This document shows positions 5,150 to 64,000 of a stretch of DNA of 64,000 nt, in pieces. Below the pieces are notes generated by a model that had not been told where the DNA came from, ran no database searches, and saw nothing but the letters and a program-made list of their open reading frames with translations. The position numbers and the translations under genes were made by a program. Numbering within the stretch: the first letter of the stretch is position 1; each line of letters starts with the position of its first letter. Location: the NCBI RefSeq assembly GCF_058153355.1, contig NZ_CM177019.1; one strand, written 5' to 3'.

Positions 5150-6562
5150 TCCTTTCCTCGCTTCTTCGTACGCTGCCAGCGTTCGCAGCCTTGCCTCTTT
5201 GTGATCAACTATCGGTTGCGGATAATCCAGCGTCACACCTGCTTTCTGCGCCCACTTCCACGGTTCATGCACCGCTTTCCCTGGTACATCACGCAACTCT
5301 GGTAACCACTGGCGGATAAACTCACCTTCGTGGTCAAATTTCTCGCCCTGAGTTGTCGGGTTGAAAATACGGAAATACGGTGCAGCATCAGTTCCAGTAG
5401 AAGCCGCCCATTGCCAGCCACCGTTATTGGCTGCCAAATCACCATCAATCAGTTGCGACATGAAATATCGCTCGCCTTCCCGCCAGTCGATCAGCAAATC
5501 TTTCACCAGAAAACTGGCAGTAATCATCCGCAGGCGATTATGCATCCAGCCAGCGCTGTTAAGCTGACGCATGGCCGCATCAACAATCGGGTATCCCGTT
5601 TTGCCTTCCTGCCAGGCCTTTAAATGCGCGGGATTGCTTTGCCACTGTACGCGATCGGTCCAGGCAATAAAGGGGCGATGCTTACACAGTGACGGGTGAT
5701 ACGTCATCAAATGACGGTAGAACTCGCGCCAGATCAGCTCATTAAGCCAGACGCTACCCGGTCCGCCTTCCAGCGCCTGCGGCTGTTCCGCCAACAGGCG
5801 ATGCAGACACTGGCGAGGCGATAACCTACCCGTTGCAAGGCTTGCAGACAAACGGCTGGTGCCTTCCACTGCCGGAAAATCACGCTGCTGATCGTACTGA
5901 CTCGCACCGTTCTGGCAAAACTGGCGTAATTGCGCAATCGCCGCTTTTTCTTCCACCGGGAAATGCGCGGTATCGAAAGACTGACGAGGGTAATTCAGCG
6001 TAATAGATGGCGCGGGATCTAATGATCCGCTACTCCGAACTTTTGGCGCAGCGACGCACTCCGGCATCCCTTCCCGCAGCCGTTTCAGCCAGGCATTCTT
6101 AAAAGGCGTAAAGACTTTGTACATCTCATGATTGCCAGTCATCACCGCCCCCGGCGGCAGGATCACGCTGTCATCGAACCCTTCACACACCACGTTACTC
6201 AGCGCTCTTTCAACTTCCACATCCCGCGCCCGCTCATTCACCTCATACTGATAGTTATAAAACAGATGGGTAACACGATTTTCCGCGCACACCTGTTTAA
6301 CTATTTCGACGCTGGCGGCAAAGTCATCCACTTCATGAAACAGCAAAGGAATGCCTTTTTCCGCCAGCGCGATTTGTAGCCCGTTCAGTTGTGCATTGAT
6401 AAATTCAGCCTGACGCGGCGACATATTATGCGCCGCCCACTGGCGTGGTGTAGCGATATACAACGCCAGCACGCGTGCAGACGAATAGCGGCAAGCGGCC
6501 GCCAGCGCGAGATTATCATGCAGACGTAAATCCTGGCGAAACCAGACCAGATGGGTAGTCAT
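5144..6562 (-). CDS. phr: Deoxyribodipyrimidine photolyase
   Basis: 472-aa ORF with C-terminal FAD-binding region (WQWAASTGTDAAPYFRIFNP). Confidence 0.9.
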   Translation of the reverse strand: MTTHLVWFRQDLRLHDNLALAAACRYSSARVLALYIATPRQWAAHNMSPRQAEFINAQLNGLQIALAEKGIPLLFHEVDDFAASVEIVKQVCAENRVTHLFYNYQYEVNERARDVEVERALSNVVCEGFDDSVILPPGAVMTGNHEMYKVFTPFKNAWLKRLREGMPECVAAPKVRSSGSLDPAPSITLNYPRQSFDTAHFPVEEKAAIAQLRQFCQNGASQYDQQRDFPAVEGTSRLSASLATGRLSPRQCLHRLLAEQPQALEGGPGSVWLNELIWREFYRHLMTYHPSLCKHRPFIAWTDRVQWQSNPAHLKAWQEGKTGYPIVDAAMRQLNSAGWMHNRLRMITASFLVKDLLIDWREGERYFMSQLIDGDLAANNGGWQWAASTGTDAAPYFRIFNPTTQGEKFDHEGEFIRQWLPELRDVPGKAVHEPWKWAQKAGVTLDYPQPIVDHKEARLRTLAAYEEARKGA

Positions 6563-7113
6563 AAAACTCCTGCATGGCGCAAGTTAATCACCCGCGGCCA
6601 AAGTTCGAAATAACGCTGCTCTGAAAGCCAGGCGTCAGGATAAAGCGCCATATAGTGTTTGATACGCATCAGCGGCGCAAGAAGCGGTTGCTCGCCACGG
6701 CGATAACTGTCGATAAGCGCCGCCAGCTGCTGGCGTTCTGTGGAATCAATATGTGGGCGAAAATAACCCTGAACGTGCATCAAAACGTTGGTGTGATCGC
6801 GCGGGTTGGCGGGATGAGAAAGCAAAACAATGACGCGTTGGCGGTACTGGTTGTAATAGTCATCCAGATTTTGCCACTGGTGAATATCAGCCACAAACGG
6901 GCCAAGTTTGCGGTATTCCGGCTGGGAATGAGCCAGAAAGACGAGTTTATAGCGGCTGTGATAATCGTTGAGCGCCCCGCGCGTTAAGCCATGTTCTTTC
7001 AGTCGATGTAACTCATAAAGCGCGAAGATACGGATTAAAGTGCTTTCATCAAATCGTTGCTGATTCATTACTGCTCCTGAACGGTTTACAGGAGTAAGTG
7101 TAGACGTTGGCAA
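6559..7113 (-). CDS. ybgA: DUF1722 protein YbgA (co-transcribed with phr)
   Basis: ORF whose stop overlaps phr start by 4 bp; true start may be an internal ATG (K-12 protein is shorter than the 184-aa maximal ORF). Confidence 0.7.
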   Translation of the reverse strand: MPTSTLTPVNRSGAVMNQQRFDESTLIRIFALYELHRLKEHGLTRGALNDYHSRYKLVFLAHSQPEYRKLGPFVADIHQWQNLDDYYNQYRQRVIVLLSHPANPRDHTNVLMHVQGYFRPHIDSTERQQLAALIDSYRRGEQPLLAPLMRIKHYMALYPDAWLSEQRYFELWPRVINLRHAGVL

Positions 7114-7128
7114 ATGATGTTTGTGAAG

Positions 7129-7986
7129 TTAATCCTGTTGTAGCAGGGCAAGATTACGAAAGCACGCTCCCCGCAAGGACTGACGCCAGGTAGTTTCTGT
7201 CCATGGCTGCCCTTTCCATTCACACGTGAAATCAATAAGTTCATCAGGGACATCGCAAACAATGTGAAGACGGATTTCTTCTCTGCCGTGACTCTTTTCA
7301 CTAATTGCGTAACTGTCATGCTCTGGATTATTTAATTCTTTCAGTGAGAATTTTTCCTCAAAGGCTTTATTTAGCCGCCCCTGGTTTCCTTTTACAGCGA
7401 ATAAATAATCACCTCCCTGTTTTTGTATCTTCTCTGCAATATCTTTCTGGCAACCCATCGCATCAGTTGTGATGATTTTTCCTTTAATATCCAGCATGTT
7501 AAGAAGTTCAGGGATAGCTGTAATTTCATTTGATTTCTCATCCGTCCTGATCTGTCCGATGACCAGACTGTGCATTGTTGAGAACGCACTAATGACATGA
7601 ATCGCTCCCCTGCAGCGACTCTTGTCATAAGAATGCCGGAGCTTTTTTCCATCAATTGCAATGACGTCTTTATCATCTGAAGAATGGCAGTCACGCATCC
7701 AGTTAATAAAGCACTCGTGAAATTTTGCAGGACTGATACAGGATACAACTCTGGCAATGGTATCGTGAACAGGAATACCATTTTCAAAATCACCCTATTG
7801 CTTCAAAAAATCGAGATGTGTTTCCCCAAAATCCTCTATATCTTCTCAACCTTCTGCACCCGAAATAACGGCGCAAATAGTCAACAGTAGAATATCCGAT
7901 AATTTATGTTCCACTTTCCAGGCTTGTCTGTAATCGGGGATAATAGAAATATGTTCCATCAATTTTTTAAGTACCATTTTGTTCTC
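7129..7986 (-). pseudogene. Decayed H-repeat (ISAs1-family) transposase: frameshifted and internally deleted
   Basis: N-terminus [43 protein letters not shown] then stop; body in two overlapping frames (7392-7793 and 7129-7698); the canonical C-terminal peptide [12 protein letters not shown] appears out of frame after ...EWKG, indicating an internal deletion. Confidence 0.8.
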
Positions 7987-8370
7987 CTTAATTATGTAAG
8001 GAGTATTTGATCATGTATAAGCAATAAAAAACAGCTTCAGGTAATGAGGAATATCTCAATTTTTAAACATAAAATGCGAATTGTTTAGTACAAAAAAGCA
8101 GCGTTACGTGATCTTTTCCTGCCATGGGTCTTTACCACAGCAGCTGGGGTTGTTTGGGACCGACTTCCGACAGCAGATCCCGGTGAGCCTGCCACCATCT
8201 CTTCACAAGCTTATGCTTATTACATGCAAAACGTCCCGTTTTGCATCTTTGTGCCTACGGCACACGATGATCTTTCCCTGAGGAGTCATACTTTGTTAGG
8301 ATAAAAAACCTTTAAATAGCTTTCCTACCTTCCAATAAAAACCACAGAATCAGCAATGTTTAAATTTCAA

Positions 8371-9192
8371 TCAGTATTGAGTTTCATTTGTGATCTCTAC
8401 ATTCACTCCTGATGGCTTCTCGCTAAATAAATATCTCATACTCTCATTCTCCATAATCACGGATATATTTAACCCTCCATGAATCCATTGATATGTAATA
8501 TTTTTATCATCAATCTTATAACTAAAATTCCCAATTGGTAACTTTTCCTTCAGATAATTATTCTCCTCATAACTAAGTGCTAGTAATTTATCATAGGCAC
8601 CTTTTAAATCAAAACCCTCAAAATAGCAATGTTCTTTTGATGAACCATCAAATTCTTTTCTGGGATTAGCATCATGACACCAAGTCGACCATTTTTCTTT
8701 TTTTTCCTCAGAAGTATGTTTTTTTTCATTGAAAAACAGCACATAATATTTCTCTGGGATTATTATCTGATCATTAATTTTTAAGATATCTCTATATGGC
8801 CCAGGACATTTATGAACAGAATCCATAATGGATATTTCTTCAGGAAAAAGTTTGCCTTCATGTTTAAATAATTTCCTGTACATACCAACTGTTGTTTGTG
8901 ATAAGTAATATGACAAGGGCTTTTTTTTAACTTCAACATAGTCAGTCGAGCATACGAGACTATTTTCCAATGAATAATCATTTATCGTTAGCTTTCGCCC
9001 ATCCATATTTATCACTACCTTACTGTATGTTTCATCAAGGGCACTTATTATAAGCGAATCATGTTTACCAAAAACATCGATATCTGAAACATTATGATAA
9101 ATCCATACGGTATTTTTAGTATTATCATTAGAATATGCGATACCATGAATAAAAAAAATCATTAGAAAGCCCATAAAAAATTTACCGCGCAT
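8371..9192 (-). CDS. Secreted (signal-peptide) protein of unknown function; candidate immunity protein for the upstream effector
   Basis: 273-aa ORF, N-terminal hydrophobic signal peptide (MRGKFFMGFLMIFFIHGIAYS), very AT-rich and K/N/E-rich; AAGGA ribosome-binding site; starts 19 bp after the effector stop. Confidence 0.6.
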   Translation of the reverse strand: MRGKFFMGFLMIFFIHGIAYSNDNTKNTVWIYHNVSDIDVFGKHDSLIISALDETYSKVVINMDGRKLTINDYSLENSLVCSTDYVEVKKKPLSYYLSQTTVGMYRKLFKHEGKLFPEEISIMDSVHKCPGPYRDILKINDQIIIPEKYYVLFFNEKKHTSEEKKEKWSTWCHDANPRKEFDGSSKEHCYFEGFDLKGAYDKLLALSYEENNYLKEKLPIGNFSYKIDDKNITYQWIHGGLNISVIMENESMRYLFSEKPSGVNVEITNETQY

Positions 9193-9211
9193 ACAAATTC
9201 CTTAATGTAAA

Positions 9212-11977
9212 TCAATGTGATGAATCATAAACATTATTCAAAAATAGATTTTGTTCTTTTCGGCGTCGTATAACAAGGCCAGCAACTCCGCCATTTGTAA
9301 TATCAAGAAATTCATTGGAGGCACCTATATAATCCTTTTGATTAAGTTTAGAATTCAAATTCGGTGCCTTACTCATGCTCCCCATATTAAACAATAAACT
9401 TATTAACGCATCAAATTCGTACTGATATAAATCCACACTCACTGTTCTTTTAAGCTCACTAACAAAACCAGATAAACGCTCTTCAAATAACTCATCAGCT
9501 TTAGCAATTGTTATTCCATGCTGAAATTCTTCTGGTAAAACTATATCATTGCAACGTTGTGTAGCAATTAAATGTCCATAACCTATAGTACAGTAACCTT
9601 CTGAATCATTATATGCTGTTAGTTGTAAATATTCCCATTCTTTTATAAAACCCTTACCTTTATTTGATACATTCAAATCTGCAATGGCGATCCTTTCAGC
9701 AGTTTGTTCTTCGTTAAAACTATTGATGTACCCCTCCATCAATATATCAATTGGATCATGTAAATCATCCCGTCTATAAAATGGAGGTATTTGTGTATTA
9801 TTCGGCGGAGGCGCTCCATTGTTTCCTGGATAGTATTCAAAATGCAACATATAAACCACTTCTTCCCCAGGGATTATAACTGGAGGCCTCCCTGTATCAG
9901 GTTTAATCATCAACCCTGTTTTGGCAATTATTGCCCCTTGCATAATATGATCATTAATCTTTACTAAAATACTTGATGGATCAACTTCACCATACCGCAC
10001 ATAGAAATGCCGACCATCTCTAGTCGAGTGCTCAATCGTAACTTGCCAAGTACCGTAATAGTATCGAGAAATAGCTCTTACTATTCCGTTGCAAACCGAA
10101 ACAATATCAGACTTCGGTTCCGTATATAGATCACGCGCTCCATGTTTTCTATTACCATTATTACGATTTCGTCCAAATATAGCTTGAGAGGCATTTCGAT
10201 CTGTCAAGGCAGCAGCCCAAAAATAATTTTTCCACTTTCCATTTTTGTCATTATTAGGTTTTACTTTTAAAGGAAAAATAATTTGATTTGATTTTTTCTG
10301 AGATAATGAATCTAAAAACACAACCGGATGAAAATGCCACACAGCATCATCACTATTAAACGGAGATACCCCGCTCATCCACTCCAGATCCAGCTGCCAC
10401 TTCTCACAGTATGCCACTTCCTCTGTATCCAGATCTTTATAAAATCCTTCCCACCGCCCTGTCGAGCGCCCTCCGTACCATTCGCTGTGGTGTTTAACTA
10501 TCAGATGATTCACCACATTTCTCACCAGTGGTTCACGCACGATCAGCGCCTGTCTGATCTCTTCCTCCGTCACTTTTCCATCACCGTCCTGATCCATACC
10601 CGCCATCAGCTCACGATAAAAGGGCGGTACCTGCTCATACAGCCACTCATCTCCCTGTTCTGCGGCACGGCTTATTGAGTCAAACGCTTCCGGCACCCAT
10701 CCTTCGTACGGGCTGTACGTCATGTCACCGCTGCTGTTCTCCTCCAGCGGTTGAAAACCCAGCTTCAGTAAATCATACTGTCCGGCCTCTTCAACATCCT
10801 TTTGTGGCAGCCAGCCGGTTCCGGTGATATTAAACCACCACTGCTGCGATTCATCCGTGACTGGTGTCGTGGCTTCCCGCGGAAGAACGCGCTGAGCACC
10901 CAGCGTGGCTGCGGTTGCGGTAAATACCTCCTGTCCCGGAACGGCCTGCCGGGTGTATAAAATTATCCCTTTTGGTGCCAGAACAGTCCGTTTTTCTCCC
11001 TTAACGCCTGCCGGGTTGGATAAGAACTTTGGCATATTCGGGTCTGTACTCAGAACCTCCAGATGGACGAACCACTCGCGCTCAATCTCACCGCTTCCCT
11101 CGCCAGGATAATCCTCGCATCCCATAAATCCGACCGGTGTTCCGGCACTGACTTTCCACTCTTCCGTTTCGTCGACCGTCTGTACCGAGTCAAAAATGCC
11201 TTTTGCCTTCGCCTTCTGCATCCACTCAGGCATCAGCATCTGTATTTCGCCATCTGACTCCATCAGATCCGGATCCAGGGTCACCCAGTACTGCTCATTC
11301 CCCGGTTTATTGCCTTCCAGCAGGCGAACCAGTCCGAATGTCGTCAGGACCGGCTGGCCGTTATTGGTCACGTAAAAACGTCCGGTCCGGGATGACACAA
11401 ACCGATCTCCCGCATTAAGTGTCCTGTTTCCGCTGATTTTCGGGGGTATCCAGTACGTGGCATGATCTCCGCTTTCCTGCCCCTCGGGAAGGCCGTTCTT
11501 TCCCGGGATGTATCGGTGCAGCAATATGCCACCATGCCCGGTTTTAACTTTATAGCAGGGGGAGCCGGGATAATCGTTCACCGGGGCCAGATGCATATAG
11601 AGACAGTAAAATTCCAGCCAGCTTTCTTTTTTTTGCGGGTCTGGCTGGCACTGCGATTTCACCAGAACAAATGTGCTGCTGTAACGGAGTTGCTGCCCTT
11701 TGTAGGGGCCTTTCAGGTAATCATTATTTATCCGGTACGCCGCAATGGTGCCATCGGCCATAAACTGAAGAGGAACCGGTTCTCCGGTAGCGGCGGTATC
11801 CGGTTTCAGGGCTGATAACGGATTAGACACGTCACTGATATGTATCCCGCCGTGCCACAGCCCGTTTCCACCCAGCAGCCAGGTTCCGTGCGCTTCTTTG
11901 TCAATAAGCCGCATTATCTCATCCAGTGAGCGAAACTCTTTGCCTTCTTTATCCCTGATGGGATGGCTGATTTTCAT
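9212..11977 (-). CDS. Candidate T6SS cargo effector: multidomain peptidoglycan hydrolase (M23/LytM-like domain plus C-terminal T4-lysozyme-like GH24 domain), with an EF-hand-like loop
   Basis: 921-aa ORF starting 9 bp after the vgrG stop with an AAGGA ribosome-binding site; C-terminus carries the phage-lysozyme signature EWEYLQLTAYNDSEGYCTIGYGHL; middle region has KHGARD (HxxxD) ... YMLHFEY (M23-like); DQDGDGKVTEEE calcium-binding-type loop. Confidence 0.7.
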   Translation of the reverse strand: MKISHPIRDKEGKEFRSLDEIMRLIDKEAHGTWLLGGNGLWHGGIHISDVSNPLSALKPDTAATGEPVPLQFMADGTIAAYRINNDYLKGPYKGQQLRYSSTFVLVKSQCQPDPQKKESWLEFYCLYMHLAPVNDYPGSPCYKVKTGHGGILLHRYIPGKNGLPEGQESGDHATYWIPPKISGNRTLNAGDRFVSSRTGRFYVTNNGQPVLTTFGLVRLLEGNKPGNEQYWVTLDPDLMESDGEIQMLMPEWMQKAKAKGIFDSVQTVDETEEWKVSAGTPVGFMGCEDYPGEGSGEIEREWFVHLEVLSTDPNMPKFLSNPAGVKGEKRTVLAPKGIILYTRQAVPGQEVFTATAATLGAQRVLPREATTPVTDESQQWWFNITGTGWLPQKDVEEAGQYDLLKLGFQPLEENSSGDMTYSPYEGWVPEAFDSISRAAEQGDEWLYEQVPPFYRELMAGMDQDGDGKVTEEEIRQALIVREPLVRNVVNHLIVKHHSEWYGGRSTGRWEGFYKDLDTEEVAYCEKWQLDLEWMSGVSPFNSDDAVWHFHPVVFLDSLSQKKSNQIIFPLKVKPNNDKNGKWKNYFWAAALTDRNASQAIFGRNRNNGNRKHGARDLYTEPKSDIVSVCNGIVRAISRYYYGTWQVTIEHSTRDGRHFYVRYGEVDPSSILVKINDHIMQGAIIAKTGLMIKPDTGRPPVIIPGEEVVYMLHFEYYPGNNGAPPPNNTQIPPFYRRDDLHDPIDILMEGYINSFNEEQTAERIAIADLNVSNKGKGFIKEWEYLQLTAYNDSEGYCTIGYGHLIATQRCNDIVLPEEFQHGITIAKADELFEERLSGFVSELKRTVSVDLYQYEFDALISLLFNMGSMSKAPNLNSKLNQKDYIGASNEFLDITNGGVAGLVIRRRKEQNLFLNNVYDSSH

Positions 11978-28394: not shown

Positions 28395-28493
28395 GCCGGA
28401 TGCGGCGTGAACGCCTTATCCGTCCTACAAAATAGTGCAAATTCAATATATTGCACCATCCTCGTAGGCCTGATGAACGTAGCGTATCAGGCT
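28395..28493. repeat. REP/BIME cluster (two inverted REP units)
   Basis: gccggatgcggcgtgaacgccttatccg..cctac and gtaggcctgatgaacgtagcgtatcaggc. Confidence 0.8.
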
Positions 28494-47826: not shown

Positions 47827-47903
47827 TGGCTACGTAGCTCAGTTGGTTAGAGCACATCACTCATAATGATGGGGTCACAGGTTCGAATCCCGTCGTAGCC
47901 ACC
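47827..47903 (+). tRNA. metT: tRNA-Met (elongator, anticodon CAU)
   Basis: 77-nt cloverleaf ggctacgtagctcag...ctCATaa...gtagccacca. Confidence 0.9.
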
Positions 47904-47911
47904 ATCTTTTT

Positions 47912-47996
47912 TGCGGGAGTGGCGAAATTGGTAGACGCACCAGATTTAGGTTCTGGCGCCGCAAGGTGTGCGAGTTCAAGTCTCGCCTCCCGCACC
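47912..47996 (+). tRNA. leuW: tRNA-Leu (anticodon UAG)
   Basis: 85-nt sequence with long variable arm, ends ...cccgcacca. Confidence 0.85.
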
Positions 47997-48019
47997 ATTC
48001 ACCAGAAAGCGTTGTACGG

Positions 48020-48094
48020 ATGGGGTATCGCCAAGCGGTAAGGCACCGGTTTTTGATACCGGCATTCCCTGGTTCGAATCCAGGTACCCCAGCC
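48020..48094 (+). tRNA. glnU: tRNA-Gln (anticodon UUG)
   Basis: 75-nt tggggtatcgccaagcggtaaggcaccggtttTTGat... Confidence 0.9.
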
Positions 48095-48129
48095 ATCTTC
48101 TTCGAATAAGCGGTTCACCGCCCGGTTAT

Positions 48130-48204
48130 TGGGGTATCGCCAAGCGGTAAGGCACCGGTTTTTGATACCGGCATTCCCTGGTTCGAATCCAGGTACCCCA
48201 GCCA
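48130..48204 (+). tRNA. glnW: tRNA-Gln (anticodon UUG), tandem copy
   Basis: Identical to the 48020-48094 copy. Confidence 0.9.
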
Positions 48205-48219
48205 TCGAAGAAACAATCT

Positions 48220-48296
48220 GGCTACGTAGCTCAGTTGGTTAGAGCACATCACTCATAATGATGGGGTCACAGGTTCGAATCCCGTCGTAGCCACCA
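48220..48296 (+). tRNA. metU: tRNA-Met (elongator, anticodon CAU), second copy
   Basis: Identical to the 47827-47903 copy. Confidence 0.9.
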
Positions 48297-48344
48297 AATT
48301 CTGAATGTGTCGAATGCGTTCGGCAAATTCACAAACCAATTTGT

Positions 48345-48419
48345 TGGGGTATCGCCAAGCGGTAAGGCACCGGATTCTGATTCCGGCATTCCGAGGTTCG
48401 AATCCTCGTACCCCAGCCA
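48345..48419 (+). tRNA. glnV: tRNA-Gln (anticodon CUG)
   Basis: 75-nt ...ccggattCTGattccgg... Confidence 0.9.
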
Positions 48420-48456
48420 ATTTATTCAAGACGCTTATATTGTAAGTGCACCCAGT

Positions 48457-48531
48457 TGGGGTATCGCCAAGCGGTAAGGCACCGGATTCTGATTCCGGCA
48501 TTCCGAGGTTCGAATCCTCGTACCCCAGCCA
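48457..48531 (+). tRNA. glnX: tRNA-Gln (anticodon CUG), tandem copy
   Basis: Identical to the 48345-48419 copy. Confidence 0.9.
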
Positions 48532-51582: not shown

Positions 51583-52623
51583 TTGAACATAGACACTCGC
51601 GAAATCACTCTGGAGCCAGCAAACAACGCACGTCTGTTGAGCCTGTGCGGCCCGTTTGATGACAACATCAAACAACTCGAACGCCGTCTCGGCATCGAAA
51701 TCAATCGCCGCGATAACCACTTTAAACTGACCGGCCGTCCGATTTGCGTCACCGCTGCGGCAGACATTCTGCGTAGCCTGTATGTCGATACTGCCCCGAT
51801 GCGCGGTCAGATTCAGGATATCGAGCCGGAACAGATCCACCTGGCGATTAAAGAAGCGCGCGTGCTGGAACAAAGTGCGGAGAGCGTGCCGGAGTATGGC
51901 AAAGCGGTCAATATCAAGACCAAACGAGGTGTAATTAAACCGCGCACGCCAAACCAGGCGCAGTACATCGCCAATATTCTCGACCATGATATTACCTTCG
52001 GCGTTGGCCCGGCGGGTACGGGTAAAACCTACCTGGCAGTGGCTGCGGCAGTTGATGCCCTGGAGCGTCAGGAAATTCGCCGTATTCTGCTGACTCGTCC
52101 GGCGGTAGAAGCCGGTGAGAAACTGGGCTTCCTGCCTGGCGATTTAAGCCAGAAAGTGGACCCGTATCTGCGCCCGCTGTATGACGCGCTGTTTGAAATG
52201 TTGGGCTTTGAGAAAGTCGAGAAGCTGATTGAGCGCAACGTTATTGAAGTCGCGCCACTGGCCTATATGCGTGGTCGTACGCTGAACGACGCGTTTATCA
52301 TTCTTGATGAGAGCCAGAACACCACCATCGAACAGATGAAGATGTTCCTGACTCGTATCGGTTTTAACTCAAAAGCGGTTATTACCGGCGATGTCACGCA
52401 GATCGACTTACCGCGTAATACTAAATCAGGTTTACGTCACGCTATCGAAGTGTTAGCCGATGTCGAAGAGATCAGCTTTAACTTCTTCCACAGCGAAGAC
52501 GTGGTTCGTCACCCGGTGGTAGCGCGTATCGTTAACGCTTATGAAGCCTGGGAAGAAGCCGAACAAAAACGAAAAGCGGCGCTGGCAGCAGAACGCAAGC
52601 GCGAAGAACAGGAACAAAAATGA
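51583..52623 (+). CDS. ybeZ: PhoH-like ATPase YbeZ
   Basis: Walker A GPAGTGKT; start uncertain (possible TTG at 51583 versus ATG at 51544). Confidence 0.8.
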
Positions 52624-53087
52624 GTCAGGTGATCCTCGATTTACAACTGGCATGTGAAGATAATTCCGGGTTACCGGAAGAGAGCCAGTTTCAGACATGG
52701 CTGAATGCGGTGATCCCGCAGTTTCAGGAAGAATCGGAAGTGACGATTCGCGTGGTCGATACCGCCGAAAGCCACAGTCTCAATCTGACCTATCGCGGTA
52801 AGGATAAGCCGACCAACGTGCTCTCCTTCCCGTTTGAAGTACCGCCTGGCATGGAGATGTCGCTGCTGGGCGATCTGGTTATCTGCCGTCAGGTCGTTGA
52901 GAAGGAAGCACAAGAGCAAGGCAAACCACTGGAAGCGCACTGGGCGCATATGGTGGTGCACGGCAGTCTGCATTTGTTAGGTTACGATCACATCGAAGAC
53001 GACGAAGCAGAAGAAATGGAAGCCCTCGAAACAGAGATTATGCTTGCTCTGGGCTATGAGGATCCGTACATTGCCGAGAAAGAATAA
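52620..53087 (+). CDS. ybeY: Endoribonuclease YbeY (rRNA maturation)
   Basis: 155 aa with [11 protein letters not shown] zinc motif; overlaps ybeZ stop. Confidence 0.9.
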
Positions 53088-53176
53088 TTTGCCAGGCATT
53101 TGACTGGCAGACATCCCCGCCGTTGGTGATTAACGACGGCGTTTTGATTAACCAACATGAGAACCCATACGACGCC

Positions 53177-54055
53177 ATGAGCGACGACAATTCACACAGT
53201 AGTGACACGATAAGCAACAAGAAGGGATTTTTCTCCCTGTTACTCAGCCAACTTTTCCACGGTGAACCGAAAAACCGTGACGAACTGCTGGCGCTGATCC
53301 GTGATTCCGGGCAGAACGACCTTATCGACGAAGATACGCGCGATATGCTCGAAGGGGTGATGGACATCGCAGACCAACGCGTTCGCGACATCATGATCCC
53401 CCGCTCCCAGATGATTACCCTGAAACGCAACCAGACGCTGGACGAATGCCTTGATGTCATCATCGAGTCCGCCCACTCACGTTTCCCGGTGATTAGCGAA
53501 GACAAAGATCACATTGAAGGGATTCTGATGGCGAAAGACTTGCTGCCGTTTATGCGCAGCGATGCAGAAGCCTTCAGCATGGACAAAGTGTTACGTCAGG
53601 CGGTTGTCGTTCCTGAAAGTAAGCGCGTAGACCGGATGCTGAAAGAGTTTCGCTCTCAGCGTTACCACATGGCGATCGTCATTGACGAATTCGGTGGGGT
53701 TTCCGGTCTGGTGACCATTGAAGATATCCTGGAACTGATTGTTGGTGAGATTGAAGACGAGTATGACGAAGAAGATGATATCGACTTCCGTCAGCTGAGT
53801 CGTCATACCTGGACCGTGCGCGCACTGGCTTCCATCGAAGATTTCAACGAAGCCTTCGGCACCCACTTTAGCGATGAAGAAGTCGACACCATCGGAGGTC
53901 TGGTGATGCAGGCATTTGGGCATCTCCCGGCGCGTGGCGAAACCATCGACATCGACGGTTACCAGTTCAAAGTGGCGATGGCCGACAGTCGGCGTATTAT
54001 TCAGGTTCATGTCAAAATCCCGGATGACTCACCCCAGCCAAAGCTGGATGAATAA
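53177..54055 (+). CDS. corC: Magnesium/cobalt efflux protein CorC (CBS-pair plus CorC_HlyC domains)
   Basis: 292 aa from [11 protein letters not shown]. Confidence 0.85.
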
Positions 54056-54079
54056 AACCGAAACTGGATAGATAACTAC

Positions 54080-55618
54080 ATGGCTTTTGCCTCATTAATT
54101 GAACGCCAGCGCATTCGCCTGCTGCTGGCGTTATTATTCGGTGCCTGCGGAACGCTGGCCTTCTCTCCTTACGATGTCTGGCCTGCGGCGATTATTTCGC
54201 TGATGGGACTTCAGGCGCTCACCTTTAACCGCCGTCCACTCCAGTCTGCCTCTATTGGCTTTTGCTGGGGATTTGGCCTGTTTGGCAGCGGTATTAACTG
54301 GGTCTATGTCAGCATCGCGACCTTTGGCGGAATGCCTGGCCCGGTTAACATCTTCCTGGTGGTGCTGCTGGCGGCGTATTTGTCGCTGTATACCGGACTG
54401 TTTGCTGGCGTGCTGTCGCGTCTGTGGCCGAAAACCACCTGGCTGCGCGTGGCGATTGCCGCCCCTGCTCTCTGGCAAGTGACCGAGTTTCTGCGCGGTT
54501 GGGTGCTGACTGGCTTCCCGTGGTTGCAGTTCGGCTATAGCCAGATTGACGGTCCGTTAAAAGGACTGGCACCGATAATGGGCGTGGAAGCCATTAACTT
54601 CCTGCTGATGATGGTAAGCGGCCTGCTGGCACTGGCGTTGGTCAAACGCAACTGGCGTCCGCTGGTGGTGGCCGTCGTGCTGTTTGCCCTTCCCTTCCCG
54701 CTACGTTACATCCAGTGGTTTACCCCGCAACCGGAGAAAACCATTCAGGTTTCGATGGTTCAGGGCGACATTCCGCAATCGCTGAAGTGGGATGAAGGCC
54801 AGCTTCTCAATACGCTGAAGATTTACTACAACGCAACGGCACCGCTGATGGGCAAGTCATCGCTGATTATCTGGCCTGAATCGGCGATAACCGACCTGGA
54901 AATTAATCAGCAGCCGTTCCTCAAAGCACTGGACGGTGAGTTGCGTGATAAAGGTAGCTCGCTGGTCACCGGGATTGTCGACGCGCGTCTCAATAAGCAG
55001 AATCGCTACGATACCTACAACACCATCATCACGCTGGGTAAAGGTGCACCGTATAGCTACGAATCAGCCGATCGCTATAACAAAAACCATCTGGTACCGT
55101 TTGGCGAGTTTGTCCCGCTGGAGTCGATTCTGCGTCCGTTAGCACCGTTCTTTGATCTGCCGATGTCGTCATTCAGCCGTGGACCATATATCCAACCACC
55201 GCTGTCGGTAAATGGTATTGAGCTTACTGCGGCTATTTGCTACGAGATCATTCTCGGCGAGCAAGTGCGCGATAACTTCCGCCCGGATACCGACTATCTG
55301 CTGACTATCTCCAACGATGCGTGGTTTGGTAAGTCTATTGGCCCATGGCAGCACTTTCAGATGGCGCGAATGCGTGCGCTGGAGCTGGCGCGCCCGCTGC
55401 TGCGTAGCACCAACAACGGCATTACGGCGGTGATTGGCCCGCAGGGTGAGATTCAGGCGATGATCCCGCAATTCACCCGCGAGGTGTTGACCACTAATGT
55501 GACGCCGACTACCGGACTCACACCGTACGCACGTACCGGCAACTGGCCGCTGTGGGTACTGACGGCACTGTTTGGTTTTGCCGCTGTGTTGATGAGACTG
55601 CGAGCACGTCAACGTTAA
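54080..55618 (+). CDS. lnt: Apolipoprotein N-acyltransferase
   Basis: 512 aa; N-terminal transmembrane segments plus C-terminal nitrilase-fold domain. Confidence 0.9.
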
Positions 55619-55748
55619 TGTGAATGATGCACTGGCCAGCAAAATCGCATCATTTTTGCAGGCCAGATAAACTGTTCACACCACATCCGGTATCAACAAA
55701 ACGTACTTTCTCATTGAGCTGTGGGGCGTGATTATCATGCCCCTTTTT

Positions 55749-57626
55749 TTACGGTTCAGGGATACAAGCCACATCGCCATATTGGGGATGCCGAATAATT
55801 GCCTGCGGATCAAGCGAGCGCGTCCTGTCCATTTGGATTAACCCGTTCTTCGCCATAACAAATATCTTTCTACCATCCGCTGAAAAACGAAGATGATTAA
55901 CGTAGCTGGCAGGATAAACGCCAATAATCTGCCCGGCATTAATATTGAGCAGGATGACATAACCTTGCAGGCCATATGACACCAACGCTAAATACTGACC
56001 GTCCGGGCTAATACCCTCAACAGAATAAACGCTCCTGCTACACCATTGCGTCATAATGCTGGCTTGTTGATCCCCTGTGCTTATACGTGAAATCCCCTGA
56101 CTATCGGCAAAAATAACCTCACCATTTTTTGGTCGGAATCCCATCGCAGAAACGACACCACGCGCATCACCTGCGGGAAAGTCTTCTTTCTGATGCGTGA
56201 TGGTATTGATCCGCACGATGTTACCTCTGCCTGCTCCTGGAACCAGTAATGTTTTTTCATCCGGGGAAAGTGCCATAACCCAGGCGCCTGGTTTACCGCT
56301 CGTCCCCGTCCCGTCGTATTTCTCCAGTGCGATATCCGCCACATGCTGATAAGTCACCAGATCAATCGCTGACACACTATTACTGGTGCGATTCATCACC
56401 CAGGCTTTTGTGCCATCACGCGAGAGGATAAGGCTGTCAGGATGGGCGCCGGTGGTAATCGACTGAATAATCTCCCCCGTCGCCACGTTAACGACCGATA
56501 ATGCATTCGCTTCAAATGAAGTCGCATACAGCAACTTTTCATCGGGGCTTAACACCAGCGATCTGACGCCCTGATCTTTACAGCCACCACAATGTTTGAC
56601 TGACTTTTCTTTCGCTATGGGCGCTGTAAAGGTATGCAGGATTTTCTTTTGTCCGAGGTCGAAAACAACAATACTGTTCGTGTTTTCAATTGCGGCATAT
56701 AACGTATTACCATCCCGATTGATCGCCATATCATGGATATCGGCAATCTCAGCGAGCAAATCACCACTGGCCTGTTCACGACTTACCGGAGCGGATAATG
56801 TTTCCCTGAGGGCATTGCGTTCCTCCGCTAACTGCTGCTTTTTATGCCGTCGCTCTTGTTCAATCTCCTGCGGATAAAACTCTTCACGCAGGCTTTGCCT
56901 GACCTGCAAAACTGATTCATCAATCTGCTGCTGCACAAGCCAGATAGCCCCGGTCAGTAGAAGACTACCCGCAACAATAATCCCACCTTCCGTAACGAGC
57001 CGGTTTTGCCCAGATAAACGCGCACTCAGCCAACCCAACGCTCCACCTGCCATCAGGCCGCCAATGTGGCAAGCGTTATCTATTCCTGCTTGCCGGGCAC
57101 CATACAACAGTGTCAGCGCCACCATACCCAACAGAGAAAATACTCGCCGCTGGTTTTTATGGTGTGTACCCGCACCTGAAGAAAGCTGTGTTGCTATCGC
57201 AGCGCCAGCTATTCCCATAATTGCCCCGGATGCCCCAACGCTGATGACTATCTGCTCACTTTCGCGTAACGCATAACAGGCGCTGATGAGCCCACCAAAG
57301 ATGCCGGAGAATAACCAGATAATCAGGAGTCGCCATTTCCCCAGTATCCGTTCCGCCACTGTCCCCACCACCAGGAGTGCAAACATATTCATCAGCAAAT
57401 GGGAAAAACTACTGTGCAGAAAAACACTGCTCAATAAGCGCCAGGGTTCACCCGACAACGTGAGAGAGGCAACGTTAGCGCCGAGATGGATGAGTGCGGA
57501 TTGATCGACTTCTTCATAACTCATCCATTGTGCGAGGTAACAAAATATCCCAACACATAGCGCAAAAAGGATCAGGGTTATTGCGGGTAATTGAACATTT
57601 AACGGCTTAACCGAAGATGCAGACAT
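55749..57626 (-). CDS. Rhomboid-family intramembrane serine protease fused to a C-terminal beta-propeller (YVTN-like repeat) domain
   Basis: About 625 aa from MSASSVKPLN (AAGGAAG ribosome-binding site); rhomboid signatures GASGAIMG (GxSG) and HIGG; coiled-coil linker; repeated S/T-rich beta-strand motifs (e.g. NSIVVFDL, NALSVVNVATGE, NSVSAIDL). Confidence 0.7.
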   Translation of the reverse strand: MSASSVKPLNVQLPAITLILFALCVGIFCYLAQWMSYEEVDQSALIHLGANVASLTLSGEPWRLLSSVFLHSSFSHLLMNMFALLVVGTVAERILGKWRLLIIWLFSGIFGGLISACYALRESEQIVISVGASGAIMGIAGAAIATQLSSGAGTHHKNQRRVFSLLGMVALTLLYGARQAGIDNACHIGGLMAGGALGWLSARLSGQNRLVTEGGIIVAGSLLLTGAIWLVQQQIDESVLQVRQSLREEFYPQEIEQERRHKKQQLAEERNALRETLSAPVSREQASGDLLAEIADIHDMAINRDGNTLYAAIENTNSIVVFDLGQKKILHTFTAPIAKEKSVKHCGGCKDQGVRSLVLSPDEKLLYATSFEANALSVVNVATGEIIQSITTGAHPDSLILSRDGTKAWVMNRTSNSVSAIDLVTYQHVADIALEKYDGTGTSGKPGAWVMALSPDEKTLLVPGAGRGNIVRINTITHQKEDFPAGDARGVVSAMGFRPKNGEVIFADSQGISRISTGDQQASIMTQWCSRSVYSVEGISPDGQYLALVSYGLQGYVILLNINAGQIIGVYPASYVNHLRFSADGRKIFVMAKNGLIQMDRTRSLDPQAIIRHPQYGDVACIPEP

Positions 57627-57959
57627 AAGGTGATTCTTCCTTGAAAAGACAGGTAAAAAAGCATTTTTCCCGTGTGCAGTTATCATCCCGGCAAACGTCC
57701 CATACCGAAAAGTTAACTCTGTCCGAAATATGACTTTTTCAGCCTGAAATTACAATCGTAATTAATTCACCCCTAAGTATTTTTTGGCATGTAAGTTGCT
57801 TTATTTACTGTGTAAGCAATGAAATCAGCCGCAACGCAACCGGGTTGCACCAACACAAATCAGCGGTAGCACCAAAAAGGTGCGGTTTAAGAGTTTTGCT
57901 TCGGAATGGTGCGGCGCATCTCGCAAAAACAAACAATAAAACATCAATATCTTTACATT

Positions 57960-58081
57960 TAACCAAACTAAATGTTACCTAACAAACACAACACTGCACA
58001 ATAAAGTTGCAGATGATAACAACACAAACACTCACAACGGGTATCCATGCGTTCTTAACGCAGAAGATAAAGGAGTTGGAT
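57960..58081 (+). promoter_or_regulatory. C/A-rich gltI 5' leader (translational enhancer / candidate sRNA target)
   Basis: Long run of acaaac / caacac repeats immediately upstream of the gltI ribosome-binding site AAGGAG. Confidence 0.45.
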
Positions 58082-58990
58082 ATGCAATTACGTAAACCTG
58101 CCACAGCAATCCTGGCCCTGGCGCTTTCCGCAGGACTGGCACAGGCAGATGACGCCGCCCCGGCAGCAGGCAGTACGCTGGACAAAATCGCCAAAAACGG
58201 TGTGATTGTCGTCGGTCACCGTGAATCTTCAGTACCTTTCTCTTATTACGACAATCAGCAAAAAGTGGTGGGTTACTCGCAGGATTACTCCAACGCCATT
58301 GTTGAAGCAGTGAAAAAGAAACTCAACAAACCGGACTTGCAGGTGAAATTGATTCCGATCACCTCACAAAACCGTATTCCGCTGCTGCAAAACGGCACTT
58401 TCGATTTTGAATGTGGTTCTACCACCAACAACGTCGAACGCCAGAAACAGGCGGCTTTCTCCGACACTATTTTCGTGGTCGGTACGCGCCTGCTGACAAA
58501 AAAAGGCGGCGATATTAAAGATTTTGCCGATCTGAAAGACAAAGCCGTCGTAGTCACTTCCGGCACCACCTCTGAAGTTTTGCTCAACAAACTGAATGAA
58601 GAGCAAAAAATGAACATGCGCATCATCAGCGCCAAAGATCACGGTGACTCTTTCCGCACCCTGGAAAGCGGTCGTGCCGTTGCCTTTATGATGGATGACG
58701 CTCTGTTAGCCGGTGAGCGAGCGAAAGCGAAGAAACCAGACAACTGGGAAATCGTCGGCAAGCCGCAGTCTCAGGAAGCCTACGGTTGCATGTTGCGTAA
58801 AGACGATCCGCAGTTCAAAAAGCTGATGGATGACACTATCGCTCAGGTGCAGACCTCCGGTGAAGCGGAAAAATGGTTTGATAAGTGGTTCAAAAATCCA
58901 ATTCCGCCGAAAAACCTGAACATGAATTTCGAACTGTCGGACGAAATGAAAGCACTGTTCAAAGAACCGAATGACAAGGCACTGAACTAA
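58082..58990 (+). CDS. gltI: Glutamate/aspartate ABC transporter periplasmic binding protein
   Basis: 302 aa from MQLRKPATAILALALSAGLAQA (signal peptide). Confidence 0.9.
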   Translation: MQLRKPATAILALALSAGLAQADDAAPAAGSTLDKIAKNGVIVVGHRESSVPFSYYDNQQKVVGYSQDYSNAIVEAVKKKLNKPDLQVKLIPITSQNRIPLLQNGTFDFECGSTTNNVERQKQAAFSDTIFVVGTRLLTKKGGDIKDFADLKDKAVVVTSGTTSEVLLNKLNEEQKMNMRIISAKDHGDSFRTLESGRAVAFMMDDALLAGERAKAKKPDNWEIVGKPQSQEAYGCMLRKDDPQFKKLMDDTIAQVQTSGEAEKWFDKWFKNPIPPKNLNMNFELSDEMKALFKEPNDKALN

Positions 58991-58994
58991 TTAC

Positions 58995-59150
58995 AAGAAC
59001 CAGGGGCGGAAATTCCAGCCCTCTCGATTGTTACGTAGCACGGACAGACTATACGCCTGATGGTCGTTCCCCATCGGGCCTGAAAACCGCAATACGCTGG
59101 GTAACAATCTTCGAGGGTAGCAGTTAACGCTGCTACCCTTTTTTTTCTGG
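58995..59150 (+). ncRNA. sroC: Candidate SroC-type sRNA from the gltI-gltJ spacer
   Basis: 169-bp structured intergenic segment ending in a strong terminator hairpin gggtagcagttaacgctgctaccc plus T8. Confidence 0.45.
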
Positions 59151-59159
59151 AGTAGATTT

Positions 59160-59900
59160 ATGTCTATAGACTGGAACTGGGGTATTTTTTTACAACAAGC
59201 CCCGTTCGGCAACACCACCTATCTTGGTTGGATCTGGAGTGGTTTTCAGGTGACGATTGCTTTGTCGATCTGCGCCTGGATTATCGCTTTCCTCGTCGGT
59301 TCATTTTTCGGCATTTTACGTACCGTTCCAAACCGTTTTCTCTCCGGTCTGGGTACGTTGTATGTCGAACTGTTCCGCAACGTGCCGTTGATTGTGCAAT
59401 TCTTTACCTGGTATCTGGTTATCCCTGAACTGTTGCCGGAAAAAATCGGCATATGGTTTAAGGCAGAACTAGACCCAAATATTCAGTTTTTCCTCTCCTC
59501 CATGCTCTGTCTGGGACTGTTTACTGCAGCTCGTGTTTGCGAACAAGTACGCGCCGCGATTCAGTCGCTGCCGCGTGGGCAAAAAAATGCCGCGCTGGCG
59601 ATGGGTCTGACGCTTCCGCAGGCTTACCGCTACGTACTGTTGCCTAACGCTTATCGCGTTATCGTCCCGCCAATGACCTCTGAGATGATGAACCTGGTAA
59701 AAAACTCCGCCATCGCCTCGACCATCGGTCTGGTAGATATGGCGGCGCAGGCCGGTAAATTGCTCGATTACTCAGCCCACGCCTGGGAGTCATTTACCGC
59801 CATTACGTTGGCGTATGTGTTGATTAACGCTTTTATCATGCTGGTGATGACGCTGGTTGAACGTAAAGTTCGCCTGCCCGGCAACATGGGGGGCAAATAA
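59160..59900 (+). CDS. gltJ: Glutamate/aspartate ABC transporter permease
   Basis: 246-aa membrane protein. Confidence 0.9.
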
Positions 59901-60573
59901 TGTACGAGTTTGACTGGAGTTCCATTGTTCCTTCCCTGCCATATCTGCTCGACGGGCTGGTGATCACCCTGAAAATCACCATCACGGCGGTGGTCATTGG
60001 TATTTTGTGGGGTACGTTGCTGGCAGTAATGCGCTTGTCCAGCTTTGCGCCGATTGCCTGGTTTGCCAAAGCCTACGTTAACGTGTTCCGTTCGATCCCG
60101 TTAGTCATGGTTTTGCTATGGTTTTACCTGATTGTGCCGGGTTTTCTGCAAAACGTGCTGGGATTATCGCCAAAAAATGATATCCGTTTAATTTCGGCGA
60201 TGGTGGCGTTTTCGATGTTTGAAGCGGCCTACTATTCAGAGATTATCCGTGCCGGTATTCAAAGTATTTCCCGTGGTCAGTCGAGCGCCGCGCTGGCGTT
60301 GGGGATGACTCACTGGCAGTCGATGAAACTGATTATTCTGCCGCAGGCGTTCCGCGCGATGGTGCCGCTGCTGCTCACTCAGGGCATCGTACTGTTCCAG
60401 GATACCTCGCTGGTGTATGTGTTATCTCTGGCCGATTTCTTCCGTACCGCCTCAACCATTGGTGAGCGTGATGGTACGCAGGTTGAGATGATCCTGTTTG
60501 CCGGATTTGTTTATTTCGTTATTAGCCTTAGCGCATCGTTGTTGGTCAGCTACTTGAAAAGAAGGACAGCTTA

Positions 60574-60574
<1 letters not shown>
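59900..60574 (+). CDS. gltK: Glutamate/aspartate ABC transporter permease
   Basis: 224-aa membrane protein; start overlaps gltJ stop. Confidence 0.9.
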
Positions 60575-61299
<725 letters not shown>

Positions 61300-61416
61300 T
61301 CACTCTGGCGCGCATACCCAAGTGCGCGCCATCTCACGCTTTATCGTTTCGCTCCTCGTATCTGTTACATCCTGGCGGTACCCTTGTCGCAAAGAAGCAC
61401 ACAACAAGGAGCAACA

Positions 61417-62352
61417 ATGGCACTGCCAATTCTGTTAGATTGCGACCCAGGTCATGACGACGCTATCGCAATAGTTCTTGCCCTCGCCTCACCAGAGCTT
61501 GATGTCAAAGCAATTACGTCTTCCGCCGGAAACCAGACTCCAGAAAAAACCTTACGCAATGTTCTGCGTATGCTGACCTTGCTCAATCGCACCGATATTC
61601 CGGTAGCAGGCGGCGCGGTAAAACCGTTAATGCGTGAGTTGATTATCGCGGACAATGTGCACGGCGAAAGCGGTCTCGACGGCCCGGCATTACCGGAACC
61701 AACGTTCGCACCGCAAAACTGCACGGCGGTGGAGTTGATGGCGAAAACGCTGCGTGAAAGTGCGGAACCTGTCACGATTGTTTCTACCGGGCCGCAAACT
61801 AACGTTGCCTTGCTGCTCAATAGCCATCCGGAACTGCATAGCAAAATGGCCCGTATCGTGATTATGGGCGGCGCAATGGGGCTTGGTAACTGGACGCCAG
61901 CGGCAGAATTTAATATTTACGTTGACCCAGAAGCGGCAGAAATTGTCTTCCAGTCAGGGATACCGGTGGTGATGGCCGGTCTGGATGTTACTCACAAAGC
62001 GCAAATTCACGTTGAGGACACCGAGCGTTTCCGCACCATTGGTAACCCGGTTTCTACCATTGTTGCCGAACTGCTGGATTTCTTCCTCGAATATCACAAA
62101 GACGAAAAATGGGGCTTTGTGGGCGCACCGCTGCATGACCCATGCACCATCGCCTGGCTGTTGAAACCCGAGTTGTTTACCACTGTTGAGCGCTGGGTTG
62201 GCGTGGAAACACAGGGGAAATATACTCAGGGCATGACGGTTGTTGATTATTATTATCTGACGGGCAATAAACCGAATGCCACTGTAATGGTCGACGTTGA
62301 TCGTCAGGGCTTTGTTGATTTACTGGCTGAGCGTCTGAAATTTTACGCTTAA
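61417..62352 (+). CDS. rihA: Pyrimidine-specific ribonucleoside hydrolase
   Basis: 311 aa from [16 protein letters not shown] (nucleoside hydrolase DxDxxxDD motif). Confidence 0.9.
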
Positions 62353-62435
62353 CACACGTCATTGATTAAGATCACCACGCGTTACCTGGGTGGTCTTAAT
62401 CTGTTTATCTCTTTTTCCTTTAAGATATAAATGCA

Positions 62436-64000
62436 ATGGATAATGCAGAACTCGCCATTGGTATCTATCTCGGTACTACCAATAGTTTAATTGCCGTCTG
62501 GAAAGACGGTGCCGCGCAATTAATTCCAAATAAGTTCGGTGAATATTTAACACCATCCATAATTAGCATGGATGAAAATAATCATATTTTAGTCGGAAAA
62601 CCGGCTGTATCACGGCGCACTTCGCATCCGGATAAAACCGCCGCATTATTTAAACGCTCAATGGGCAGTAATACCAACTGGCGGTTAGGCAGCGACACAT
62701 TTAACGCACCAGAACTGTCCTCTTTGGTCTTACGTTCATTAAAAGAAGATGCCGAAGAATTTCTGCAACGTTCTATTAAAAATGTGGTGATCTCCGTTCC
62801 GGCTTATTTCAGCGATGAACAACGCAAGCATACCCGTTTAGCAGCGGAGTTAGCCGGGTTAAATGCGGTACGCTTAATTAATGAACCCACAGCAGCTGCA
62901 ATGGCGTATGGCCTGCATACCCAACAAAATACCCGTTCGCTGGTGTTTGATCTCGGTGGCGGCACGTTTGACGTTACGGTGCTTGAGTACGCCACGCCGG
63001 TGATTGAAGTTCACGCCTCCGCTGGCGACAACTTTCTTGGCGGCGAAGATTTTACTCATATGCTGGTGGATGAAGTTTTAAAACGCGCCGCAGTGGCTAA
63101 AAACATGCTCAACGAAAGTGAGCTGGCAGCCCTGTACACCAGCGTGGAAGCGGCAAAATGCAGCAATCAATTACCGCTACAAATTAGCTGGCAGTATCAG
63201 GAAGAAACGCGTGAGTGCGAATTTTACGAGAACGAACTGGAAGATTTGTGGTTGCCGCTGCTCAATCGCTTGCGAGTGCCGATTGAACAGGCGTTGCGCG
63301 ATGCGCGTCTGAAACCGAGTCAAATCGACAGTCTGGTGCTGGTTGGCGGCGCGTCACAAATGCCGCTAGTGCAACGAATCGCCGTGCGTCTGTTTGGCAA
63401 ATTGCCATATCAAAGTTACGACCCGAGCACCATTGTCGCGCTGGGCGCAGCGATCCAGGCCGCCTGCCGCTTACGCAGCGAAGACATTGAAGAAGTGATC
63501 CTCACCGATATTTGCCCCTACTCCTTAGGTGTTGAAGTTAACCGCCAGGGCGTTTCCGGCATTTTCTCACCGATTATTGAACGAAACACCACTGTACCGG
63601 TGTCGCGTGTAGAAACTTACTCGACCATGCACCCGGAACAGGATTCAATTACGGTTAACGTCTATCAGGGAGAAAACCACAAAGTTAAAAATAACATTCT
63701 GGTGGAATCCTTCGATGTGCCGTTGAAGAAAACCGGGGCTTATCAGTCGATTGATATTCGCTTTAGTTATGATATCAACGGGTTGCTTGAAGTTGACGTG
63801 CTTCTGGAAGACGGCAGCGTTAAGTCCAGAGTCATTAATCACAGTCCTGTAACATTGAGCGCACAGCAGATTGAAGAGAGTCGGACGCGGTTATCCGCAT
63901 TGAAAATTTATCCACGCGATATGCTCATCAACCGCACCTTTAAGGCCAAACTGGAAGAGTTGTGGGCGCGGGCGCTGGGTGACGAGCGAGAAGAGATCGG
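62436..64000 (+). CDS. hscC: Hsp70-family chaperone HscC, 5' portion only; continues beyond window end
   Basis: Open frame from MDNAELAIGIYLGTTNSLIAVW with Hsp70 signatures (DLGGGTFD); no stop within the window. Confidence 0.8.
   Translation, partial: MDNAELAIGIYLGTTNSLIAVWKDGAAQLIPNKFGEYLTPSIISMDENNHILVGKPAVSRRTSHPDKTAALFKRSMGSNTNWRLGSDTFNAPELSSLVLRSLKEDAEEFLQRSIKNVVISVPAYFSDEQRKHTRLAAELAGLNAVRLINEPTAAAMAYGLHTQQNTRSLVFDLGGGTFDVTVLEYATPVIEVHASAGDNFLGGEDFTHMLVDEVLKRAAVAKNMLNESELAALYTSVEAAKCSNQLPLQISWQYQEETRECEFYENELEDLWLPLLNRLRVPIEQALRDARLKPSQIDSLVLVGGASQMPLVQRIAVRLFGKLPYQSYDPSTIVALGAAIQAACRLRSEDIEEVILTDICPYSLGVEVNRQGVSGIFSPIIERNTTVPVSRVETYSTMHPEQDSITVNVYQGENHKVKNNILVESFDVPLKKTGAYQSIDIRFSYDINGLLEVDVLLEDGSVKSRVINHSPVTLSAQQIEESRTRLSALKIYPRDMLINRTFKAKLEELWARALGDEREEI

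Follow-up and report, generated by a model that had tools for sequence, protein, structure and literature searches.

SroC is a small regulatory RNA whose host transcript and target have both been described. One promoter gives rise to the gltIJKL mRNA and to a monocistronic gltI mRNA that ends at a 'leaky Rho-independent terminator', and SroC is released from the monocistronic mRNA by RNase E processing (PMC4474525). In vitro, its maturation requires a 5'-monophosphate substrate together with Hfq, and the rneR169K mutant, which is defective in 5'-P sensing, builds up longer SroC intermediates (PMC4474525). The depletion of GcvB by SroC likewise requires Hfq (PMC4474525). Deletion of sroC in Salmonella, or mutation of both of its pairing sites, extends the half-life of GcvB, otherwise 1.7 min, beyond 15 min, and SroC itself stays stable (PMC4474525). 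In E. coli, the half-life of SroC exceeds 16 min irrespective of 5' phosphorylation, and that of GcvB is cut by SroC to about 3.8 min (PMC10250213). Sponging of MgrR and repression of fliE and flhBAE by SroC have also been reported (review PMC9438474).

Two kinds of described RNA come closest to this arrangement. CpxQ, SdhX, NarS, MalH and GlnZ are, like SroC, made by RNase E, and they share its 5' monophosphate, its use of the terminator of the host mRNA and its dependence on Hfq (PMC9438474, PMC10250213). They come last in their transcription units and act mainly by repressing mRNAs, whereas SroC sits inside an operon behind a leaky terminator and has a sponged sRNA as its main target. The chbB-chbC trap for ChiX resembles SroC in that an intercistronic operon RNA pairs with an Hfq-dependent sRNA and brings about its decay (PMC4474525). 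However, the chb trap acts as part of the mRNA, with ChiX degraded via a change at its terminator and PNPase, whereas SroC acts as a stable RNA after its release and RNase E is the enzyme that cuts GcvB (PMC4474525).

The locus studied here lies near the end of a window of 64,000 nucleotides, the whole stretch of DNA that was analysed (contig NZ_CM177019.1 of RefSeq assembly GCF_058153355.1). With SroC as described (RF00369; K-12 b4763; Salmonella SroC, Miyakoshi, Chao and Vogel 2015) it shares the locus, the strand and the length of 163 nt, as well as the stem-loops, both GcvB pairing sites and the terminator. One base differs from K-12 SroC, at nt 155, which is C in K-12 and U in the window.

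Identity of the RNA in the gltI-gltJ spacer

The features on which the comparison draws are the following.

About 58004-58041, plus strand: C/A-rich GcvB target in the gltI 5' UTR, from RNAduplex with GcvB
58082-58990, plus strand: gltI coding sequence (periplasmic Glu/Asp-binding protein), whose mRNA is parental to SroC; an ORF with a matching E. coli annotation of 909 nt, the length from which the start at 58082 is derived
58986-59148, plus strand: sroC, a 163-nt sRNA from the gltI 3' UTR; RF00369, and MG1655 b4763 at 162 of 163 bases
59003-59022, plus strand: stem-loop 1, SroC nt 18-37, from the minimum-free-energy fold
59026-59109, plus strand: central long-range stem, SroC nt 41-124, enclosing stem-loop 2, from the minimum-free-energy fold
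59042-59049, plus strand: GcvB pairing site 1 (BS1), GGACAGAC, SroC nt 57-64, a perfect 8-nt complement of K-12 GcvB
59055-59079, plus strand: stem-loop 2, the apical hairpin, SroC nt 70-94, from fold and covariation
59064-59070, plus strand: GcvB pairing site 2 (BS2), UCGUUCC, SroC nt 79-85, a perfect 7-nt complement of K-12 GcvB
59113-59146, plus strand: Rho-independent terminator and SroC 3' end, a 12-bp stem at 59113-59140 with a U-tract to 59146, from scan and fold
59140, plus strand: single-base difference from E. coli, T in the window and C in MG1655, DH1 and ECCNB12-2
59149-59152, plus strand: gltJ Shine-Dalgarno sequence GGAG, 7 nt before the ATG, read from the sequence
59160-61299, plus strand: gltJ (59160-59900), gltK (59900-60574) and gltL (60574-61299), the read-through part of the operon, from ORFs and annotations

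When the whole window was scanned with Rfam at gathering thresholds, RF00369 (sroC) matched 58986-59148 on the plus strand with an E-value of 1.2e-36, over model positions 1-163 of 163 and without truncation. The earlier note on this DNA had proposed an SroC-like, mRNA-derived sRNA and had named an Infernal search with the Rfam SroC model as the way to check it. That search returned 173.9 bits against a gathering score of 45, and the full-length match refines the claim to SroC itself. Its picture of partial termination or processing with read-through into gltJKL is the biogenesis that has been published for the orthologues (PMC4474525). The coordinates that it gave, 58991-59159, are those of the spacer; the RNA is 58986-59148, with its 3' end at the U-tract.

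More exactly, the 5' end of SroC falls 5 nt inside the gltI coding sequence, among its last codons, and the 3' end lies at about 59146-59148, the RF00369 match stopping 12 nt before the gltJ ATG. MG1655 has the same layout: its curated record gives the ncRNA sroC (b4763, 'small regulatory RNA SroC') as 163 nt on the minus strand at 686681-686843, placed between gltI and gltJ with a 5-nt overlap on the gltI side. The feature in the gltI-gltJ spacer is the already known gene sroC and not a new one, and 58986-59148 is almost certainly the gene for SroC as an Hfq-dependent sRNA cut from the 3' end of the gltI transcript. The finding has little weight as a discovery, as knowledge of SroC dates from 2003 and knowledge of how it works as a GcvB sponge from 2015. 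It does illustrate that an sRNA embedded in an operon can be recognised by a reader from raw sequence alone.

A 351-nt query around the spacer was found in 5421 of 5426 complete E. coli genomes, at a median of one place per genome. Because of this distribution, the sroC locus is, on genome comparison, a single-copy feature of the core genome and not a dispersed repeat.

What we establish directly for the window is the sequence identity of sroC and its place in the family, together with its fold, its terminator, the pairing sites and a conservation backed by covariation; every sequence feature that the published mechanism requires is intact there. That the RNA is processed, bound by Hfq and stable in this strain, and that GcvB decays, we infer from the literature on the orthologues.

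As a separate observation on annotation, the automatic RefSeq records of DH1 and ECCNB12-2 are without sroC. Of the three records compared, the curated MG1655 record alone lists it.

Fold, covariation and the GcvB pairing sites

The 163-nt RNA folds at -63.9 kcal/mol, compared with -40.7 +/- 4 kcal/mol for 200 dinucleotide-preserving shuffles, none of which folds as well (0/200; z = -5.8). In the minimum-free-energy fold, a 5' leader of 17 unpaired nucleotides (nt 1-17) precedes stem-loop 1 and the central stem, and the terminator occupies nt 128-155 (59113-59140), followed by the U-tail.

Conservation of this fold was assessed across the family. A pattern scan of the genome collection for the core of both pairing sites yielded at least 80 loci. 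The matches listed include Citrobacter, Enterobacter, Klebsiella, Raoultella, Kluyvera, Kosakonia and Salmonella, as well as several Escherichia species, Mangrovibacter, Trabulsiella and others. From them we took 73 distinct Enterobacteriaceae sequences, which together with the window make an alignment of 74 sequences spanning more than 10 genera. Since the pattern itself specified the bases of the pairing sites (BS1 in part), the invariance of those sites is not independent evidence; covariation elsewhere is.

The RNAalifold consensus of the alignment contains stem-loop 2, the central stem and the terminator. Counting the pairs of the window's own fold on the 74 sequences, 89.7% of cells are paired, compared with 36-53% when the partners are slid, and cells with a change on both sides number 241, compared with 24-85 in the slid-partner controls. 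Compensatory changes affect 16 pairs of the whole fold. They include 8 of the 13 pairs in the central stem (helix 2) and 5 of the 9 pairs in stem-loop 2, where 97.7% of cells are paired; in stem-loop 1 the paired cells amount to 87.9%, with changes on both sides in 2 pairs. From these compensatory changes across 74 Enterobacteriaceae sequences we conclude that the secondary structure of SroC is conserved.

An exact search for complementary runs showed BS1 to complement K-12 GcvB nt 156-163, GUCUGUCC, and BS2 to complement nt 13-19, GGAACGA. In the minimum-free-energy fold BS2 is exactly the 7-nt apical loop of stem-loop 2. The sites are about 14 nt apart, and their positions agree with those mapped by structure probing by Miyakoshi et al. 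(PMC4474525), who confirmed them by compensatory mutations (SroC C63G with GcvB G160C, and SroC C87G with GcvB G14C, in the Salmonella SroC numbering, which runs 3 ahead of that used here for the window). The pairing was compared with K-12 GcvB, the window's own gcvB lying outside the 64 kb. Runs of this length are in themselves common, as 112 of 500 SroC shuffles had two complementary runs against GcvB, one of 8 or more nucleotides and a second of 7 or more. Because shuffles do as well this often, the evidence for pairing lies in the coincidence with validated sites and not in the statistics. A whole-molecule RNAduplex of SroC against GcvB was dropped in favour of the exact search, since it produced meaningless full-length duplexes.

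GcvB also has a predicted site upstream of the parental gene. The gltI 5' UTR at about 58004-58041 pairs with the GU-rich region of GcvB (nt 61-95) at -38.2 kcal/mol in RNAduplex, and a C/A-rich GcvB site in this UTR has been described (PMC4474525). Because gltI is itself repressed by GcvB through the 5' UTR site, the circuit would form a feed-forward loop.

The terminator ahead of gltJ

The spacer had been described in the earlier note as 169 bp, as unusually long for an operon of this kind, and as closed by a terminator at 59115-59146 directly before the gltJ ribosome-binding site. The coordinates bear out all of this. The gltI TAA at 58988-58990 and the gltJ ATG at 59160 leave 58991-59159, that is, 169 bp. 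Because both other junctions overlap by one base in the ORF list (gltJ/gltK at 59900, gltK/gltL at 60574), the gltI-gltJ spacer is an exception within its own operon. The proposed terminator is the same feature as the stem that we find by scanning at 59113-59140 with Ts to 59146, and GGAG stands right behind the T-run.

This stem, with 12 pairs (6 of them G-C) and a 4-nt loop, is the top-ranked terminator-like site in 57600-61600, and the hairpin folded alone reaches -20.3 kcal/mol. Its core is unchanged in all 74 aligned sequences, drawn from the matches listed, and the GGAG before gltJ is kept across the same alignment. By analogy with the orthologues, the terminator at 59113-59146 is described as leaky here, which would let gltJKL be read through. 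A crude consensus scan of 57600-61600 found no sigma-70-like promoter on either strand, and the absence of an own sroC promoter is consistent with origin by processing.

The mechanism published for Salmonella and E. coli K-12 would then operate as follows. Transcripts from the single gltIJKL promoter would be read into the gltI-gltJ spacer, where the leaky Rho-independent terminator would stop part of them, giving the monocistronic gltI mRNA, and the rest would continue into gltJKL. Decay of the gltI mRNA by RNase E, dependent on the 5' end and guided by Hfq, would halt at the tightly folded 3' part and leave a fragment of about 160 nt that is very stable and carries a 5' monophosphate. This product would pair with GcvB through GGACAGAC at 59042-59049 (with nt 156-163) and UCGUUCC at 59064-59070 (with nt 13-19). 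RNase E would then degrade GcvB, and SroC itself would survive. With less GcvB, mRNAs of amino-acid and peptide transporters would be de-repressed, that of gltI included.

We considered whether the conserved bases outside the GcvB sites serve, beside the sponge role, as a switch in cis. UCUCG at 59022-59026 could pair with CGAGG at 59112-59116, which would extend the central stem, sequester the base of the terminator and tune read-through into gltJKL, possibly under a trans-acting factor. A nascent transcript that lacks the 3' arm of the terminator (lengths 135 and 143) is predicted to fold with exactly this extension, the Rfam consensus structure has the same five pairs, and both segments are almost invariant in the 74 sequences. 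Control of termination by a cis element or a trans factor has also been raised as a possibility for this site by Miyakoshi et al. (PMC4474525). Counter to this, the extension shows no covariation: nt 39 and nt 129 are mismatched in 17 of the 74 sequences, as C-A in 12 of those, and the mismatch is never compensated. Moreover, forcing the alternative costs 8 kcal/mol relative to the fold with the full terminator (-55.7 versus -63.9 kcal/mol), and the invariance could equally reflect contacts with Hfq or RNase E. We consider such an additional switch unlikely. As an anti-terminator-like competitor, the UCUCG/CGAGG helix was rejected for want of covariation support, its bases being either invariant or mismatched without compensation.

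A more specific form of this idea is that the near-invariant blocks CUCUCGAUUG and AAUCUUCGAGGGUAG may form a helix that competes with the foot of the terminator and so sets, or lets a factor set, its leakiness, and hence the ratio of SroC plus gltI mRNA to gltJKL mRNA. We regard this form as slightly more doubtful still. If it were true, the U for C at 59140 would shift the ratio in this strain. The change lengthens the U-tract, weakens the closing pair and may also lengthen the 3' U-tail.

Alternatively, the spacer could be an intercistronic attenuator and nothing else, one that secures much GltI and little GltJKL and leaves a fragment with no function in trans. The terminator does directly precede the gltJ ribosome-binding site, and it sets the ratio of gltI to gltIJKL mRNA (PMC4474525); this role is genuine and does not conflict with that of an sRNA. 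However, the roughly 125 nt upstream of the terminator are conserved, structured and covarying, none of which a bare terminator needs, and both GcvB sites are intact. The rise of the GcvB half-life in Salmonella, 1.7 min at first and above 15 min on loss of sroC or of both sites (PMC4474525), also speaks against a fragment without function. Attenuation as the sole explanation has been refuted in Salmonella and E. coli by the compensatory-mutation experiments, and for the window we hold it to be very improbable.

We give a negligible chance to a dispersed repeat (REP or ERIC type) and to a small-protein gene (a minus-strand 75-aa ORF or a plus-strand mini-ORF) as explanations of the spacer. Insertions, most of them ERIC-like, do occur inside the gltI-gltJ spacer of four other species, and a mechanical 75-aa ORF does run along the minus strand at 58991-59218. 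However, no E. coli genome has the sequence at more than 2 places, the median being 1. On the plus strand, ORFs of 30 aa or more are absent from the spacer. The alignment has 1-nt and 2-nt gaps and covarying base pairs but no codon pattern, and the minus-strand ORF overlaps the gltJ start and is unsupported.

The base at 59140, the lineage and neighbouring loci

Returning to sroC itself, the T at 59140 puts U instead of C at SroC nt 155 and turns CCCUCUUUUUU into CCCUUUUUUUU, giving an uninterrupted U8 tract instead of UCU6. It also swaps the outermost G-C pair of the terminator for G-U, which leaves the hairpin at -20.3 compared with -22.7 kcal/mol. Of the complete E. coli genomes, 5419 match at 59100-59165, none of them exactly. 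Across the alignment, drawn from the matches listed, the T state is found in 66 of 74 sequences, and C in Escherichia species and a few others. The lineage thus adds a small detail, in that it carries the U8 terminator tail typical of other genera and not the UCU6 of E. coli. A GTDB representative with the same T allele reaches only about 95% identity.

The sroC gene itself is 99.4-99.7% identical to E. coli genomes. Over 52000-64000, the best identity among the 5426 complete E. coli genomes is only 98.5%, ECCNB12-2 being the best-matching genome, and in the phrB region (5500-11500) most of these genomes reach about 95%. Because the best match over 12 kb and the phrB region both stand this low, the window is, by these identities, from an Escherichia lineage poorly represented among the 5426 complete E. 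coli genomes.

In four spacers, insertions of about 30-140 nt separate the sroC core, which has both GcvB sites, from the conserved terminator and the gltJ start downstream. They belong to Enterobacteriaceae bacterium RIT691, Yokenella regensburgei, Citrobacter sp. 18056 and a record labelled Chryseobacterium sp. 18061, which looks like an enterobacterial contig. The insertion is ERIC-like in three of the four, namely RIT691 and Yokenella regensburgei (GTGAATCCCC...GGGGTGA) and, in a diverged form, Chryseobacterium sp. 18061. Insertions between the sponge module and the terminator would lengthen SroC in those bacteria.

Elsewhere in the window, at least 80% of the 6-kb stretch 5500-11500 is covered in only 1 of the 5426 genomes. 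In matching E. coli records this stretch is annotated with ltrA (group II intron reverse transcriptase/maturase) beside phrB, ybfD and a glycoside hydrolase, and Rfam group-II-D1D4-2 matches 8079-8196 on the minus strand with 42.9 bits against a gathering score of 36. A 645-aa ORF on the minus strand at 55749-57686, between lnt and gltI, is a rhomboid family intramembrane serine protease in the matching E. coli annotation; K-12 has an IS5 copy in its place, and ECCNB12-2 has neither. Seven tRNA genes are clustered on the plus strand at 47828-48528 in the Rfam scan, and the cluster resembles K-12 metT-leuW-glnUW-metU-glnVX. At 28429-28471 on the plus strand, the sRNA family ES036 (CssrF) of Rfam matches with 45.5 bits against a gathering score of 37.6.
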